DNA of 29,801 bases from an uncultured Dehalococcoidales bacterium (GCA_964592065.1 CAZQDF010000001.1:1-29801), one strand, 5' to 3'; shown: positions 1 to 20,684, counted from the first letter of the stretch. Notes: generated by a model not told the origin, from the sequence alone. Made by a program: numbers and translations.

Positions 1-2
1 GA

Positions 3-692
3 TGGCAAGTATTTTGCATTAGCACCAGTTATGAACAGTACGCTTTATCTATAACACAAAGGCTGAGCATACCCAGTGAAAATATAGCTTGCACCTCTTT
101 CCCCCTAGATTTAATTTGTCAGTTGCTAAGTGAAAACGATTTCGCCTTGCTAAAGCAAGCAGAAGAAGAATTTGCAACCCTAAGTGATGATGCCAGGATA
201 AAACAAACCCTGGACCGCTTTTATTGGCAAGAATTGCTCAAGACAAGCTCGGGAAGAATCATGACACAAGTGAAGCCTGTAGGCGGGAAACGGAAAGTGG
301 AGGCATTGGAATATTTCGCCACCAGAGTAGGGAAGCCGCTTTCCCAATGGGTAGCAGTGGGAGATAGCATCACGGATTTTAAAATGCTCCAAGCGGTGAA
401 TAGAGTCGGCGGTTTAGCCGTTGCTTTCAATGCTAATGAGTATGCTCTGCCTTACTCCACCATGGGCTTGGCATCTACAGAGTTATACGATTTATGGACA
501 GCTTTAGAAGTTTGGGAAAGGGGTGGGCGGGAGGCAACGGAGAAAGTAATTAAGAGTAGGGAGAAAACTGGTGGCAGTGGTGATAGAGGCTACTTCCATT
601 GGCTAGCTGGAATTCAAGACATAACTCGCCCACTGGAGAGCCATAAAAGGATAAGGCGCTTGGTCAGAGAAGAAGCAGCCAAATTGGGCTAA
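3..692 (+). CDS. HAD-superfamily phosphohydrolase, EhaR/COG4030-like; 5' end lies outside the window
   Basis: The frame of ORF 123..692 is open back to nt 3 (WQVFCISTSYEQYALSI...). Motifs ISTSYEQY, VAVGDSITD (HAD motif IV) and GGLAVAFNANEYAL resemble the archaeal EhaR-like HAD family. Confidence 0.6.
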   Translation, partial: WQVFCISTSYEQYALSITQRLSIPSENIACTSFPLDLICQLLSENDFALLKQAEEEFATLSDDARIKQTLDRFYWQELLKTSSGRIMTQVKPVGGKRKVEALEYFATRVGKPLSQWVAVGDSITDFKMLQAVNRVGGLAVAFNANEYALPYSTMGLASTELYDLWTALEVWERGGREATEKVIKSREKTGGSGDRGYFHWLAGIQDITRPLESHKRIRRLVREEAAKLG

Positions 693-702
693 TGTATATT
701 CT

Positions 703-867
703 CTAATCTCGCCTCTTAGTGCCGTTAATCAGCCACACCACTGTGGCAATAAGGATTACAGAAATGATGACAACAGTAATCAAGCCTGCTTTGCTTAAGC
801 CCAAAAAGTTTGACGGGCTAGCTGTGTTCAGTGTCAGGACTTGGCTAGTAGCTAACAAGGAGTTCAC
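703..867 (-). CDS. 54-aa single-pass membrane protein, not in the ORF track
   Basis: GTG start overlaps the clpP TGA (GTGA, 864-867). Translation [54 protein letters not shown] has a ~20-aa hydrophobic segment followed by KRR. Confidence 0.55.
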
Positions 868-1469
868 TTCTTTTCTGACTTGGAGAGTATTTCGTCTATA
901 ATTCCATATTCCACTGCTTGCTGGGGGTCGAGATAAAAATCTCTGTCGGTATCATGGGCAATCTTCTCCATTGTCTGACCTGTGTGCTTAGCAATGATAT
1001 TGCGGATTGTTTCCTGCAGCCTCATGATTTCCCGAGCAGCAATTTCAATATCGGCTGCTTGACCTTGAGCACCTCCAACTGCTTGGTGGAGATGTATGGT
1101 GGAGTTGGGTAGAGCGTACCTCTTACCTTTAGCTCCAGCGCAAAGAAGCAAAGTGCCCATACTAGCTGCCAAACCAACGCAGATGGTGGATACACCGCAG
1201 CGAAGAAGCTGCATAGTATCATAGATAGCCAAGCCAGCACTGATAACGCCGCCAGGACAATGAATATAAAGACTTATATCCTTTTCAGGGTCTTCCCTCT
1301 CCAGATAGAGGAGTTGTGCGATAATGAGATTGGCTATCTGGTCATTTATAGGGGTGCCTAAAAAAACGATCCTTTCCTTCAGTAGAAGGGAATATATGTC
1401 AAAGACACGCTCGCCACGGGCACCGGTCTCAGTTACCGTGGGAATTATTACTTGAGATTTTACTTCCAT
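864..1469 (-). CDS. clpP: ATP-dependent Clp protease proteolytic subunit
   Basis: [29 protein letters not shown] (catalytic Ser), IHLHQ (His), DRDFYL. The ATG at 1469 has SD AGGAGAG; the ORF track starts at 1499. Confidence 0.97.
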
Positions 1470-2829: not shown

Positions 2830-4644
2830 TCAAAGCTTTGGCTTACTGGGATAACCTTCGCGAAGAATCTCATGCTTCAATTTTAAATTTAGTTCATCAA
2901 GCTGGTTCCTATCAACGTATGAGGGACTGTCGAACATCAAGTCAGCAGCATTTTGGTTTTTGGGGAAGGCAATGACCTCCCTGATACTTTGCTCACCAGC
3001 GAATAGCATTAGCAATCGGTCTAGTCCTATGGCAATGCCACCATGGGGTGGTGCTCCATATTCCAGCGCTTTTAAAAGGCATCCAAAACGGCTTTCCATT
3101 TCCTCTTGGCTATAACCAAGAAGTTCAAATATTTTCTCCTGGAGCTGGCGCTTATGGATTCTGATGCTGCCGCTGCCAAGCTCGCAGCCGTTGCACACAA
3201 TATCATAATGGCGACCATGAACCTTGGCCAGTTCGGTATCAATCAACAGCATATCTTCCTCCCGCGGTGCAGTAAACGGATGATGCATTGACTCCCAGCG
3301 ACCTGCCGTCTCACTCCATTCCAACAGAGGGAAATCAACTATGAAGGTAAAAGCGAGTAGCTTAGCATCGGCTAGGCTAAGCCGGCGTGCCATCTCGCGA
3401 CGCAACTCGTCAAGCGCCCTGTTAGTCACCTCTAGTTTGTCAGCGATGAATAGTAAAAGGTCACCAGACTTTGCCTCGAATCTAGCAGCTATATTTTCCA
3501 GTTGAGCTTGAGTCAAGTATTTGGCAGCTGCTGACTTTACCTTATCTAATGCCACAGATTCTCCTGTAAAAGCTATAGTGGTTAACCCTTTAGCTCCGTT
3601 GGCTTCAGCCAGATTGATTAATCCATCAAGTTGATGGCGGCTATAATGACCACAACCAGGAACGCATATTCCCTTCACTTTGCCACCCTTCTCAATAACA
3701 GAACGGAAAACATCAAAGTTAGTTTGAGCAGCGATATCAGATATATCTTTGAGTTCCAAGCTGAATCTCATATCTGGTTTATCTGTGCCATAGCGCTCTG
3801 TTGCTTCCTTGTAGGAGAGGCGTGGGAAAGGCTTTAATACTCGCATTTCTGGTTTAATAATCTCTACAAGCGAGGTGAAAAGCTCCTCCATAAGTTGTAA
3901 TATGTCCTCTTCTTCTACAAAGCTCATCTCCAGGTCAAGCTGAGTAAATTCAGGTTGGCGATCCGCTCGAAGGTCTTCATCTCTAAAGCAGCGAGCTATC
4001 TGGAAATATTTTTCAAAACCAGCTACCATGAGGATTTGTTTGAGTTGTTGTGGAGATTGAGGGAGAGCATAAAACTTGCCTGGGTTGAGGCGGCTAGGTA
4101 CAAGGTAATCGCGAGCTCCTTCTGGAGTGCTCTTAATCAAAATAGGCGTCTCGATTTCGATAAAGCTTTTGGCATCGAGGAAGGCACGGATAAACTTTAT
4201 CGCCCTGTGGCGTAAGATGATATTATCTCGTACTCTAGGTCTTCTCAGGTACAGATAGCGACTTTTGAGGCAAAGTGATTCTTCAACTTCCACATCCTCA
4301 TTTATGTAAAATGGCGGAGTTTCTGAAGGATTAAGGATGACAGCTTTTTTAACTATGACTTCAATATCTCCGGTAGCCAATTTGGAGTTCTCTGTGCCTT
4401 TAGGACGGGGAACAATTTCTCCAGTAATCTGAATTACATACTCATTGCGGAGTGAACCAGCTATCTGGTAGGTATCTTGGGATATCTGCGGGTTGAAAAC
4501 TATTTGGACTACGCCTTCTGTATCTCGTAGGTCAATAAATACCATGCCGCCGTGGTCACGGCGTCGGTGCACCCAACCAGCTAAAGTTGCCTTCTGGCTA
4601 ACATGTTCTTTTCTCAGTTCACCACAACTATGGGTTTTGAGCAA
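2830..4644 (-). CDS. aspS: Aspartate--tRNA ligase, probably non-discriminating (Asp/Asn)
   Basis: GWVHRRRDHGG, GARDYLVPSR, ALPQSPQ, FRDEDLRADRQPEFTQLD, PPHGGIAIGLDR. His in RDHGG and Gly in RPKGTEN are the recognised ND-type determinants. Confidence 0.96.
   Translation of the reverse strand: MLKTHSCGELRKEHVSQKATLAGWVHRRRDHGGMVFIDLRDTEGVVQIVFNPQISQDTYQIAGSLRNEYVIQITGEIVPRPKGTENSKLATGDIEVIVKKAVILNPSETPPFYINEDVEVEESLCLKSRYLYLRRPRVRDNIILRHRAIKFIRAFLDAKSFIEIETPILIKSTPEGARDYLVPSRLNPGKFYALPQSPQQLKQILMVAGFEKYFQIARCFRDEDLRADRQPEFTQLDLEMSFVEEEDILQLMEELFTSLVEIIKPEMRVLKPFPRLSYKEATERYGTDKPDMRFSLELKDISDIAAQTNFDVFRSVIEKGGKVKGICVPGCGHYSRHQLDGLINLAEANGAKGLTTIAFTGESVALDKVKSAAAKYLTQAQLENIAARFEAKSGDLLLFIADKLEVTNRALDELRREMARRLSLADAKLLAFTFIVDFPLLEWSETAGRWESMHHPFTAPREEDMLLIDTELAKVHGRHYDIVCNGCELGSGSIRIHKRQLQEKIFELLGYSQEEMESRFGCLLKALEYGAPPHGGIAIGLDRLLMLFAGEQSIREVIAFPKNQNAADLMFDSPSYVDRNQLDELNLKLKHEILREGYPSKPKL
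2846..2871 (+). repeat. Repeat right-end fragment inside the aspS 3' end
   Basis: CTGGGATAACCTTCGCGAAGAATCTC resembles 6701-6726 CTCAGGGTAAACTCCGCGAAGCAATC. On the minus strand it encodes EILREGYP of the AspS tail. Confidence 0.55.
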
Positions 4645-18627: not shown

Positions 18628-18930
18628 TCACTTTGCACTTTTAGCTGTCCTGTGCCTTTTCCAGCCTAATATTGTCAGCAAATCTCCTACGACTGTATCC
18701 CTCGCTGTCTCATGCCTTAGAGGCAAATCGGGGTTAATACGATAGGTGTTGCTCCTGCCCACCTTTCTGCGCTTTAAGTAACCTGCGGCTTCCAGGTCCG
18801 AGATTGTTTTGTGGACGGTTCTCTCTGTAAGGCCCAGGGTCAAGGCAATGTCGCGAGTGGTGCTGCGCTGATGCCTGGAGATATGGCTCAGGACCATGCC
18901 ATGACTGGTAATAAAAGTCCACTCTCCCAT
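18628..18930 (-). CDS. Winged helix-turn-helix transcriptional regulator (MarR/AsnC-like, WTF.T.H type)
   Basis: WTFITSHGMVL...TRDIALTLGLTERTVHKTISDLEAAGYLKRRKVGRSNTYRIN; SD GAGGAG. Confidence 0.88.
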   Translation of the reverse strand: MGEWTFITSHGMVLSHISRHQRSTTRDIALTLGLTERTVHKTISDLEAAGYLKRRKVGRSNTYRINPDLPLRHETARDTVVGDLLTILGWKRHRTAKSAK

Positions 18931-18987
18931 TTTATTCAGTTCTCCTCAAAAAAAATGAAATTTTATCTTAAAACCTCGTAAAACCAC

Positions 18988-19015
18988 TTGACAAAATTGA
19001 TGGTAGCAGTATAAT
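18988..19015 (+). promoter_or_regulatory. Consensus sigma70 promoter
   Basis: TTGACA (18988-18993)-N16-TATAAT (19010-19015). Confidence 0.7.
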
Positions 19016-19251
19016 TATTCTAGAAAACTAATTCATAATTATTATCTCACATTATATATTGCAGTAATTATAATAACAATAGCATAGCAAATTATTGAAT
19101 ATTGGTAAAGTGCTTAAACGTAAACGTTATTTCAGCTATATCACTCAAACCTCTTGTGATTACTTAGCAAACAGTCACAGGAGAAAATTGTTTAAGGTTG
19201 CAAACATGGATACTTGCCAAATCGAGTCCTGTAAAAAAGGAGGTGAGAAGC

Positions 19252-19302
19252 ATGCAGAAGAAACCTAGTGCTCCTAAGCCAGGTGCCCCTAGGCCCAAGT
19301 AG
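19252..19302 (+). CDS. 16-aa Pro/Lys-rich peptide MQKKPSAPKPGAPRPK
   Basis: SD AAGGAGGTGA at 19237-19246, ATG at 19252, TAG at 19300-19302; flanked by a promoter and a terminator. Confidence 0.6.
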   Translation: MQKKPSAPKPGAPRPK

Positions 19303-19321
19303 TTGAGTTATAAGGGTAGGT

Positions 19322-19368
19322 AAAGCGAAGGGGAGTTTCCCCGTAAGGGGTGGCTCCCCTTCGCTTTT
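19322..19368 (+). terminator. Intrinsic (probably bidirectional) terminator
   Basis: Perfect 14-bp stem AAAGCGAAGGGGAG/CTCCCCTTCGCTTT, inner CCCC-GTAA-GGGG hairpin, followed by T run. Confidence 0.8.
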
Positions 19369-19579
19369 GGCTTCGGAGGCAAGGCACAGAGTTTATCACG
19401 TAAGCGAGCTTAGTAACTAAGTCAAGATGGAGATAGCAAATTTTTATTTGAAGAACATCAGCCCTGCACTTCATGTTACCCGTGGTATAAAACCTTATAA
19501 TTTGGAGGAGGGAGCCACCTCGCTATTGAGTCCCTGGGGCCTAACGAGCCAGATGGCCACGAAGTGCAAAACCAAATTA

Positions 19580-19588
19580 TGCTATAGT
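19580..19588 (+). promoter_or_regulatory. Extended -10 promoter 7 nt upstream of the ychF ATG (possible leaderless mRNA)
   Basis: TGCTATAGT-TATATCC-ATG; no SD. Confidence 0.5.
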
Positions 19589-19595
19589 TATATCC

Positions 19596-20684
19596 ATGAA
19601 GATTGCCATTATTGGACTGCCCAAGAGTGGTAAAACAACCGTCTTTAATGCCTTAACCAGAGGCAGGGCTGAGGTCGCTGCTTATGCCTCGTCTTTAGCC
19701 CCAAATGTAGGCGTGGCCAAGGTATCTGATTCTCGATTGGTAGCACTAGAGAACATATTCCATCCTAAAAAGGTTGTTCCTGCGGAAGTAAGCTATGTAG
19801 ATATTGCAGGGTCAGTTAAGGCTTTTTTTAAAGAGGGTATAGGAGGGGAATTCCTGAGCTATCTAACTGCTGCTGATGCTTTGCTTCAAGTAGTCCGGAC
19901 CTTTCAAGATGAAAACCTTCCCCATCCTGAAGGAAGTATAGATCCTAAACGGGATATAGCTACTTTGGACTTAGAGCTTACCTTCTCCGATTTAAATATT
20001 ATTGAGAGAAGACTTGACAGGCTGGAGGTAAGCTTAAAAGCTGCTAAAGCAGCGGAGCGTGGACAGTATTTGAAGGAACAAATACTGTTGCAGAAGATTA
20101 AAACAGAATTGGAAAAAGATATACCGATAAGGCAGCAAGAGCTCAGTAAGGATGAACTCGGGGCATTGTCTAATTACCAGTTTCTTACGGCTAAACCTGT
20201 ACTAGTTGTGCTTAATATCGGAGAAGAACTATTACCACAGGCTTCACAATTGGGAGATGAGATAAGCTCCCTCTATCCTCGATTTGCTGTTGTAGCTCTT
20301 TGTGGAAAGCTCGAGATGGAGTTAGCTCAGTTTAGCGATGCTGAGGCCAAGGAATTCCGTGAATCTATGGGGCTAACTGAGCCAATGCTCGACCAGGTTA
20401 TTGGCCTTTCTTATCATCTTTTGGGGCTAATTTCATTTTTCACCACAGCCTCCGCTGAATTGAAAGCATGGACTATCCCCAGCGGTATGATGGCACCGGG
20501 GGCGGCGGGGAAGGTCCATTCTGATATGGAAAAAGGATTTATCCGAGCTGAGACGATCAGCTATGCTGATTTGGAGAGCTGTGGGAATTTATGCGAGGCA
20601 CGGAAAAAAGGCCTGCTTAGAACAGAAGGCAGGAATTATGTCATCCAGGATGGAGATATAATTACCTTTCTATTTCACGTTTGA
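19596..20684 (+). CDS. ychF: Ribosome-binding ATPase YchF
   Basis: IIGLPKSGKTT, DIAG, FLTAKP, AAGKVHSDMEKGFIRAE, EGRNYVIQDGDII.F.F. Confidence 0.96.
   Translation: MKIAIIGLPKSGKTTVFNALTRGRAEVAAYASSLAPNVGVAKVSDSRLVALENIFHPKKVVPAEVSYVDIAGSVKAFFKEGIGGEFLSYLTAADALLQVVRTFQDENLPHPEGSIDPKRDIATLDLELTFSDLNIIERRLDRLEVSLKAAKAAERGQYLKEQILLQKIKTELEKDIPIRQQELSKDELGALSNYQFLTAKPVLVVLNIGEELLPQASQLGDEISSLYPRFAVVALCGKLEMELAQFSDAEAKEFRESMGLTEPMLDQVIGLSYHLLGLISFFTTASAELKAWTIPSGMMAPGAAGKVHSDMEKGFIRAETISYADLESCGNLCEARKKGLLRTEGRNYVIQDGDIITFLFHV

Follow-up and report, generated by a model that had tools for sequence, protein, structure and literature searches.

Results

Organization of the locus

The stretch of DNA that we analyzed, referred to throughout as the window, covers 29.8 kb of an uncultured Dehalococcoidales genome and carries a compact transcription unit centered on a micro-ORF of 16 codons, arranged divergently from a gene for a MarR-like winged-helix (wHTH) regulator (Table 1). 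The regulator matches the Pfam models MarR_2 (2.6e-08) and HTH_24, both accounting for the helix-turn-helix only, and its gene has holA, mscS, and ychF as neighbors. A near-identical copy of the contig (99%) is contained in the MAG contig JAFGBN010000009, and DNA of the window was found in salt-marsh and sediment metagenomes.

Table 1. Features of the micropeptide unit and its immediate surroundings, numbered from the first nucleotide of the window
Feature	Coordinates	Strand	Remarks
MarR-like wHTH regulator gene, 100 aa	18628..18930	-	divergent from the micropeptide unit
Candidate wHTH promoter, TTGTCA-N18-TAAGAT	18965..18994	-	consensus scan, 9/12 matches
Sigma-70-type promoter, TTGACA-N16-TATAAT	18988..19015	+	-35 box 18988-18993, -10 box 19010-19015; perfect consensus
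Operator-like site	19019..19037	.	counterpart of the CCTGAA-AAATAA-TTCAGG palindrome found in relatives; the window's copy (TCTAGAAAACTAATTCATA) is degenerate
AT-rich 5' leader, about 215 nt	19022..19236	+	conserved blocks 19076-19125 and 19200-19236, variable middle
10-bp stem-loop, CTCTTGTGAT / GTCACAGGAG	19151..19183	+	19151-19160 pairs with 19174-19183; in the minimum-free-energy fold
Shine-Dalgarno (SD) sequence, AAGGAGGTGA	19237..19246	+	near-perfect, unique in the window
Micro-ORF, 16 aa, MQKKPSAPKPGAPRPK, stop TAG	19252..19302	+	orthologues in 12 lineages
Intrinsic terminator	19322..19368	+	14-bp outer stem AAAGCGAAGGGGAG (19322-19335) / CTCCCCTTCGCTTT (19354-19367), inner CCCC-GTAA-GGGG hairpin, TTTT
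Spacer with remnant of MFS transporter gene start (ATG 19427)	19369..19595	+	outside the unit; downstream cargo decayed

A sequence-only reading of this region had proposed a consensus promoter, an SD sequence, an ATG, a 16-codon ORF, and a 14-bp terminator, and all of these elements were recovered. The promoter conforms perfectly to the sigma-70 consensus and occurs once in the window against an expectation of 0.01 in shuffled sequences; it was also the sole 12/12 match in a consensus scan of 10 kb. The 10-nt SD sequence is likewise present once (0.09 expected), ends 5 nt before the ATG at 19252, and places GGAGG 8 nt from that codon. Both signals are therefore far above chance. The terminator hairpin was folded in both the minimum-free-energy and centroid structures; a simple terminator scan left this plus-strand hairpin unlisted, its U-tract comprising only four T residues, and support for it comes from folding and conservation. 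The transcript as a whole folded more stably than shuffled sequences (z = -3.4), owing mainly to the terminator and a local stem. Antisense ORFs lying over the repeat (GLGAP...) were set aside as a composition artifact with no start signals.

Conservation and coding signature of the micro-ORF

Relatives were collected with the wHTH protein as the query against a protein collection and against public genomes and metagenomes, the DNA around each match then being fetched. Micro-ORF orthologues were found in 12 lineages of an uncultured sediment clade of Dehalococcoidia, and each adjoins a wHTH orthologue of 73 to 88% identity. The SD sequence, a start codon 8 to 9 nt 3' of it (ATG in six lineages, TTG in six), an open frame, and the terminator are present in all 12, so that the pairing of an SD sequence with a Lys/Pro-rich short ORF beside this wHTH family extends well beyond the window in which it was first noticed and passes the conservation check by which the sequence-only reading proposed to refute it. 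Retention of the whole set in 12 lineages places it well outside coincidence. The predicted peptides are 13 to 32 residues long and follow the consensus M-Q-K-K-P-(G-A-P-K-P)n-K, with n = 1 to 4 (Table 2). The unit of the internal repeat originally described as PSAPKP/PGAPRP is the pentapeptide G-A-P-K-P, in one to four copies.

Table 2. Predicted micropeptides at the window and at related loci
Locus	Peptide
Window, L001	MQKKPSAPKPGAPRPK
L042	MQKKPGAPKPGAPRPK
L007, L043, L044	MKKKPGAPKPGTAKPK
L003	MQKKPKPGGPKPK
L045	MEKKPKPGAPKPK
L004	MQKKPKPGAPKPSAPKPK
L006	MQKKPKPGAPKPGAPKPK
L005	MQKKPGKPGAPKPGAPKPK
L011	MQKWKPGAPKPGAPKPKPK
L008	MQKWKPGAPKPGAPKPGAPKPK
L009, L010	MQKWKPGAPKPGAPKPGAPKPKPK
L038-L040	MQKKRGAPKPFGAPKPGAPKPGAPKPEEPKKS

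Changes in micro-ORF length are always multiples of three, arising through indels of 3, 6, or 15 nt. Across the C-terminal 11 codons common to six lineages, differences by codon position number 20/5/52 and the pooled pN/pS is 0.18, an estimate drawn from a small sample of related lineages and weakened by the concerted evolution that repeats can undergo. Variable columns of the micro-ORF are distributed 4/1/6 by codon position, and the window differs from its relative L042 by four synonymous changes and one nonsynonymous change. Because the middle of the leader has drifted to 64% identity and synonymous sites within the micro-ORF have reached a pS of 0.39, there has been time enough for an unconstrained frame of 16 codons to decay, and its survival in all 12 lineages would be unexpected if nothing constrained it. 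The pattern of substitution indicates that the product is very probably under selection at the protein level, and we consider it very probable that the micro-ORF is a real, translated gene.

The single exception is L002, in which the wHTH protein is 84% identical and the ATG has become GCT, several prolines have been replaced, and the terminator has been deleted; having lost start codon and terminator, at least one lineage can thus do without the micropeptide gene. No such peptide accompanies the wHTH proteins of the more distant clade, and the micropeptide family was found in one narrow clade only. When the 32-residue member was compared by phmmer with 1.84 billion proteins, there were no matches, as expected given that gene callers skip ORFs this short, and a literature search on the repeat strings found no described homologue.

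Leader and RNA structure

The leader is AT rich, as first described, with a GC content of 0.29. Its two conserved blocks are 81 to 82% identical among relatives, compared with 83% for the ORF and 64%, with 22% gaps, for the intervening middle, and the SD core is 91% identical. The distance from stop codon to terminator is 19 to 20 nt in most lineages and 23 nt in L038, and the hairpin shows some compensatory pairs. The leader, in RNAalifold runs on 7 and on 11 sequences, yielded no conserved secondary structure (consensus, -0.35 kcal/mol), which leaves a riboswitch or RNA thermometer without support. The 10-bp leader stem to which the sequence-only reading drew attention does exist and forms part of the minimum-free-energy fold, but it is not conserved: most relatives do not have the segment, which is lineage specific and absent from L004-L006, L008-L011, and L045. 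At the gathering score, neither the window nor 20 related loci matched an Rfam family; in a permissive scan of positions 18850 to 19650, the best E-value was 0.21, for a miRNA hairpin model overlying the terminator. Conservation of the leader blocks may point to a function of the RNA itself.

Two further reading frames were considered and discarded. The frame opened by a uORF-like ATG at 19206 (MDTCQIES...), in the proximal leader block, is broken in the lineage of the window, and its changes among relatives are mostly nonsynonymous; an extended ORF of 34 residues from a TTG at 19198 has a start that is not conserved, L002 having CTA at this point.

Promoter region and putative operator

The sequence CTTGACAAA is found together with TATAAT at all near-clade loci, and the -35 box is also present in the far clade. 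Immediately 3' of the -10 box, most relatives carry CCTGAA-N6-TTCAGG, whose 6+6 arms match perfectly as a palindrome in L007, L041, and L047, and a related motif occupies the same place in the far wHTH clade (51 to 63% identity), whose divergent genes differ greatly. The occurrence of an operator-like motif in both clades, whatever the cargo gene, is what one would expect if the regulator bound there itself, and it is reasonable to suppose that the wHTH protein represses the micropeptide promoter, probably through the site just 3' of the -10 box. The earlier suggestion that the divergent regulator might control the unit gains plausibility from this conserved, operator-like site, although the copy in the window is degenerate. 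On the opposite strand, TTGTCA-N18-TAAGAT is a candidate promoter of the wHTH gene itself; its -35 box overlaps that of the plus-strand promoter, and its -10 block, TCTTAAAAC, is retained in most relatives.

Variation in locus layout

In the window the micro-ORF forms a stand-alone unit, as the sequence-only reading had it, but this arrangement is not general, since in some relatives the micro-ORF lies behind two larger genes. In this second layout, here termed Form B (L003, L038-L041, and L047/L048), two tandem paralogous genes for proteins of 111 residues (MFWKKKPAKEE...) are situated between the distal leader and the micro-ORF, which becomes the last cistron, the promoter and leader being common to both 111-residue genes. 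A block of 40 to 70 nt that precedes the micro-ORF is present twice in Form B, in a degenerate state before the first 111-residue gene and intact before the micro-ORF, so that either an insertion or a deletion between direct repeats would convert one form into the other. Both forms occupy orthologous positions beside holA and mscS and are intermixed on the wHTH tree, the resolution of which is too low to place gains and losses of the 111-residue genes in sequence. The proteins themselves provided no functional clue: they have no Pfam match, their 351 homologues are spread over several phyla and are all hypothetical, the genes in other phyla lie in unrelated contexts from which the micro-ORF is absent, and an AlphaFold model (pLDDT, 78) with a disordered, Lys/Pro-rich N terminus had no fold matches in the PDB.

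The DNA beyond the terminator varies as well. A conserved spacer leads from it to lineage-specific genes, which encode an ArsB/CitMHS-type permease in L005, L006, L008-L011, and L045 and an MFS transporter in L004, L007, L043, and L038. In the window, the spacer segment GGCTTCGGAGGCA...AAGTCAAGATG shares homology with the DNA preceding the intact MFS genes, and only the first bases of such a gene (19427 onward) remain ahead of ychF; L003 also has ychF here, and L042 has a stop-riddled MFS pseudogene remnant larger than that of the window. In lineages without the transporter, the micro-ORF is intact and its changes are mostly synonymous.

RNA libraries

No RNA run contained the window's own sequence. 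In two small libraries described as metatranscriptomic (X18 and X19), contigs with a depth of 2 to 5 covered the L008 unit, neighboring genes being covered similarly, and one of these contigs extends from the middle of the leader to about 64 nt past the terminator. X19 also contained a 771-nt contig, at a depth of 9.5, that matches a Form B organism, beginning in the region of the 111-residue genes and reaching the micro-ORF, where it breaks off within the repeat. A third library labeled as RNA (X17) held an 11-kb contig at a depth of 1306 and was uninformative. These contigs are compatible with transcription of the unit and with cotranscription in Form B, but may also reflect carryover of DNA. 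The original description of the peptide as highly expressed finds no support in these contigs: depth in the RNA libraries was low (2 to 10), was no higher than that of neighboring genes, and could represent DNA.

Properties of the predicted peptide

Apart from the initiator Met, most of the peptides are made up solely of Lys, Pro, Gly, Ala, Gln, Ser, Thr, Arg, and Glu, with a single Trp in three variants and a single Phe in one. The version in the window has a net charge of about +6 and is about 40% Pro, and Pro comes directly after each Lys and Arg, except for the N-terminal Lys-Lys and the C-terminal residue. This pattern, together with the Pro content, predicts an extended, disordered, polyproline-II-like chain that would resist trypsin-like proteases; Lys-Pro bonds resist trypsin, and KPSAPKPGAPRPK is the expected trypsin-resistant fragment. 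The variants have no hydrophobic stretch or transmembrane helix of the kind that marks type I toxins and membrane microproteins, and they have no signal sequence, so that the peptide should stay in the cytoplasm. A search of the neighborhood (wHTH, holA, mscS, ychF, and transporters) for hallmarks of RiPP or RRNPP-type systems found no adjacent modifying or export enzyme and no TPR receptor. The product is most likely a flexible, protease-resistant, cytoplasmic polycation of the polyproline-II type, as judged from its predicted composition. Since anything from one to four repeats is tolerated, the function is more likely to rest on charge and composition than on a precise interface.

Discussion

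We suggest that the consensus sigma-70 promoter would fire an mRNA of ~350 nt, that the MarR-like neighbor would probably repress its synthesis from the palindrome-like site, which spans about +1 to +20, and that relief of repression would permit efficient translation of the 16-residue peptide, driven by the AT-rich, unstructured leader and the near-perfect SD sequence, with the strong hairpin serving to terminate the transcript. The peptide may then act in trans on a polyanionic partner, which could be nucleic acid, the ribosome, or its own regulator, and the number of repeats may tune the charge dose delivered. Taken as a whole, the proposal of a wHTH-controlled, trans-acting polycationic micropeptide produced from a real, unannotated gene has in our estimation a somewhat better than even chance of being correct, and any particular target that might be named for the peptide is doubtful at best. 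By analogy, we favor a trans-acting polycation that would bind nucleic acid or ribosomes, since the nearest analogues are the Lys/Pro/Ala repeat tails that bind DNA.

Such tails are represented by the KPAA repeats of AlgP/AlgR3, the C-terminal domain of PhaF, the PAKKA tail of mycobacterial HupB, and histone-H1-like tails, which bind DNA electrostatically. They have in common with the micropeptide short repeats of Lys, Pro, and Ala, sometimes with Gly, a strong positive charge, and predicted disorder, but they are appendages of larger folded proteins and comprise tens of repeats, whereas here the repeat, with G-A-P-K-P as its unit, makes up the entire product of 13 to 32 residues. The proline-rich antimicrobial peptides oncocin, Bac7, and apidaecin, which correspond to the analogy offered in the sequence-only reading, are secreted animal host-defense peptides that are processed from precursors and possess defined motifs for binding in the ribosomal tunnel; the micropeptide resembles them in being cationic, rich in Pro and Arg or Lys, and of comparable size (16 to 30 residues), and the window's copy contains a PRP motif, but this motif is not conserved, most relatives having PKP, and there is no export signal. 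To our knowledge, very few bacterial proteins of fewer than 20 residues have a known role.

Among the alternatives, the one that survives best assigns the main effect to the RNA, as a base-pairing or protein-titrating sRNA with the conserved leader blocks as its working parts, the ORF representing either a second function, as in Spot 42/SpfP and SgrS/SgrT, or a means by which ribosome loading stabilizes the transcript. Leader blocks that match the ORF in conservation and share no conserved fold are reminiscent of seed or binding regions, the strong terminator ends the transcript in the manner of an sRNA, and dual-function RNAs with a 15-residue product are known (PMC8916003). We nevertheless regard this explanation as unlikely: the Form B leader heads an mRNA for two 111-residue proteins, which identifies the distal blocks as a 5' untranslated and operator region and not as the body of an sRNA, the concentration of changes at third codon positions and the frame-preserving indels speak for selection on the peptide itself, and the RNA matches no Rfam family.

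Somewhat less likely still is a leader peptide acting in cis, in which terminator read-through into the transporter genes would depend on how ribosomes progress through its codons for Pro, Lys, Gly, and Ala, in the manner of MgtL and MgtP. Intact micro-ORFs upstream of a gene that varies or has decayed argue against an attenuator of this kind: the downstream gene differs between lineages and has been deleted or pseudogenized in the window, L042, and L003, where the micro-ORF remains under purifying selection. The conserved distance between ORF and terminator, the location of the permease or MFS start 50 to 100 nt further on in most relatives, the abundance of Pro codons, and the RNA-library contig that continues beyond the terminator would all suit read-through control, but the RNAalifold runs detected the terminator only, with no conserved antiterminator pairing, consecutive Pro codons are absent, the downstream genes have leaderless-type starts of their own, and a codon sensor needs neither selection at the amino acid level nor a variable number of repeats. 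The MgtL and MgtP ORFs of Salmonella mgtA and mgtCBR are likewise very short, Pro rich, and situated in a long leader ahead of a termination signal, but each of them controls, in cis and by way of alternative RNA structures, a downstream gene that is always the same (PMC6460261), whereas the present locus has no conserved structures of this type and is followed by a gene that varies or has been lost.

Feedback of the micropeptide on the neighboring wHTH regulator, altering its DNA binding, appears improbable on present evidence; the free variation in repeat number would be unusual for a specific protein-protein interface and the far clade of the wHTH family manages without such a peptide, although the micro-ORF is strictly linked to the wHTH gene in 12/12 lineages while all else around it changes, and there is a precedent in SpfP, the 15-residue product of Spot 42 RNA, which binds the transcription factor CRP (PMC8916003). 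Least probable of all is a functionless micro-ORF, a young by-product, arising where a 15-nt repeat expanded after a strong SD sequence and looking conserved through close kinship, for, although the copy number of the unit varies as slippage predicts, the family is confined to a narrow clade and was lost in L002, and the +1 frame is also open owing to composition, the start, frame, stop, and peptide have been kept in 12 lineages with a low pN/pS while neutral parts of the transcript acquired many substitutions and indels, and the 3- and 6-nt indels preserve the frame as well as those of 15 nt.

The micropeptide gene belongs with bacterial small-protein genes and dual-function transcripts, and no annotated or described homologue was found. 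SpfP/Spot 42, SgrT, and SR1P (PMC8916003, PMC12310071, PMC12612679) resemble it in that a product of ~15 residues, missed by annotation pipelines, is encoded on a short, separately terminated transcript with conserved noncoding parts; they differ in that there is no sequence relation, and the product described here is a low-complexity polycation with variable repeats, encoded in some relatives by the last cistron of an operon.

Genes of 13 to 32 codons are invisible to annotation pipelines, and in this instance comparative evidence alone makes a strong case for a tiny gene whose polycationic, low-complexity sequence is unusual, which has a dedicated regulator, and in which the number of repeats varies. 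The locus shows a micro-gene that persists while larger genes around it are inserted, deleted, and pseudogenized. As a speculation to which we attach little weight, free-standing Lys-Pro repeat micropeptides might constitute recurrent and overlooked bacterial "mini-protamines," abundant and protease-resistant polycations of the polyproline-II type, with repeats tuned by slippage and expression gated by a dedicated neighboring transcription factor, that modulate the nucleoid, RNA, or ribosome, for example, during ionic or osmotic stress in sediments. The host is an uncultured lineage that is abundant in sediments, and the peptide, should it prove to bind nucleic acids, ribosomes, or its regulator, would represent a new type of small effector.

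Variation between the wHTH gene and ychF

The two divergent promoters of the window (18965-19015) apparently have a -35 region in common (TTGTCAA on either strand), and close to it lie short palindromic and other motifs (see the table), of which the repeated ATAATTAT is restricted to the lineage of the window and the related locus L002. Further downstream, the block ahead of the SD sequence holds a conserved ATG, both in the window (19206-19268) and in the homologous block of relatives. In most relatives this ATG starts a 12-codon frame that is closed by the TGA within AGGAGGTGA; the frame stops in ATGA in the related locus L007, overlapping the start of the micro-ORF, and a 2-nt difference throws it out of register in the window. 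The frame is probably not coding, since changes within it are mostly non-synonymous between relatives; the block itself is nonetheless under constraint.

In some relatives, the shared leader is separated from the micro-ORF by an insertion of two tandem paralogous genes, each encoding a 111-aa protein (MFWKKKPAKEE...). The protein is predicted to combine a disordered, K/P-rich N terminus with a small alpha/beta domain (AlphaFold model, pLDDT 78); no Pfam domain was detected in it and its fold had no match in the PDB. The family comprises 351 homologues from Dehalococcoidia, Desulfatiglandales, and Thermodesulfobacteriota, among others.

In the window, the long stretch that separates ychF from the terminator contains the beginning of an MFS transporter gene in decayed form. 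Among the related loci compared, this gene is intact in L004, L007, L043, and L038; L042 retains a larger pseudogene of it, and an ArsB/CitMHS-type permease precedes it in other relatives. The region from the wHTH gene to ychF is a gene-loss hotspot.

Coordinates of features in the window and in related loci
Feature	Location	Strand	Locus
ATAATTAT palindromes	19011-19018 and 19035-19042		window
TATAATTA / TAATTATA	19010 and 19065		window
MFS transporter remnant ('MEIANFYLKN...')	ATG at 19427, within gap 19369-19633		window
Tandem 111-aa gene pair	2975-3645	-	L003
Tandem 111-aa gene pair	564-1237	-	L038
Tandem 111-aa gene pair	2-579	-	L041
Tandem 111-aa gene pair	1-539	-	L048
Basic small ORF MKVPDKIKSLFKWPKGKAKAGKAGQVRTK	~170-260 nt upstream of wHTH gene	opposite	L030
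Far-clade RNA elements	~200-400 nt upstream of wHTH gene	opposite	L013, L014, L016, L018-L026, L030, L031

Sequencing run X17

Run X17, labelled a marine-sediment metatranscriptome (35 million letters), yielded an 11.4-kb contig from the Dehalococcoidia lineage of L008, a near relative carrying the micro-ORF unit, at a word depth of ~1300 (L008:1500-4500). The contig spans spacers and genes alike, and the library looks to be dominated by DNA or amplified material of the L008-lineage organism.

Divergent transcripts in the far clade

At the place equivalent to the micro-ORF, one locus of the more distant wHTH clade (L030) has a different basic small ORF of 29 aa, which did not turn up in the other far-clade loci. 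The far-clade divergent transcript includes a short terminated RNA (...GACCTGTGGGGGCAGGTCTTTT) and a conserved hairpin-like element, GGGCTCAGAG-CCCCAAGTGTGGGTGTACC-TTTGAGCCC, usually situated upstream of permease genes and a gene for a solute-binding lipoprotein that carries a long (Ala-Pro)n linker. The RNA element had no match in Rfam and so may represent a cis-regulatory RNA not yet described.
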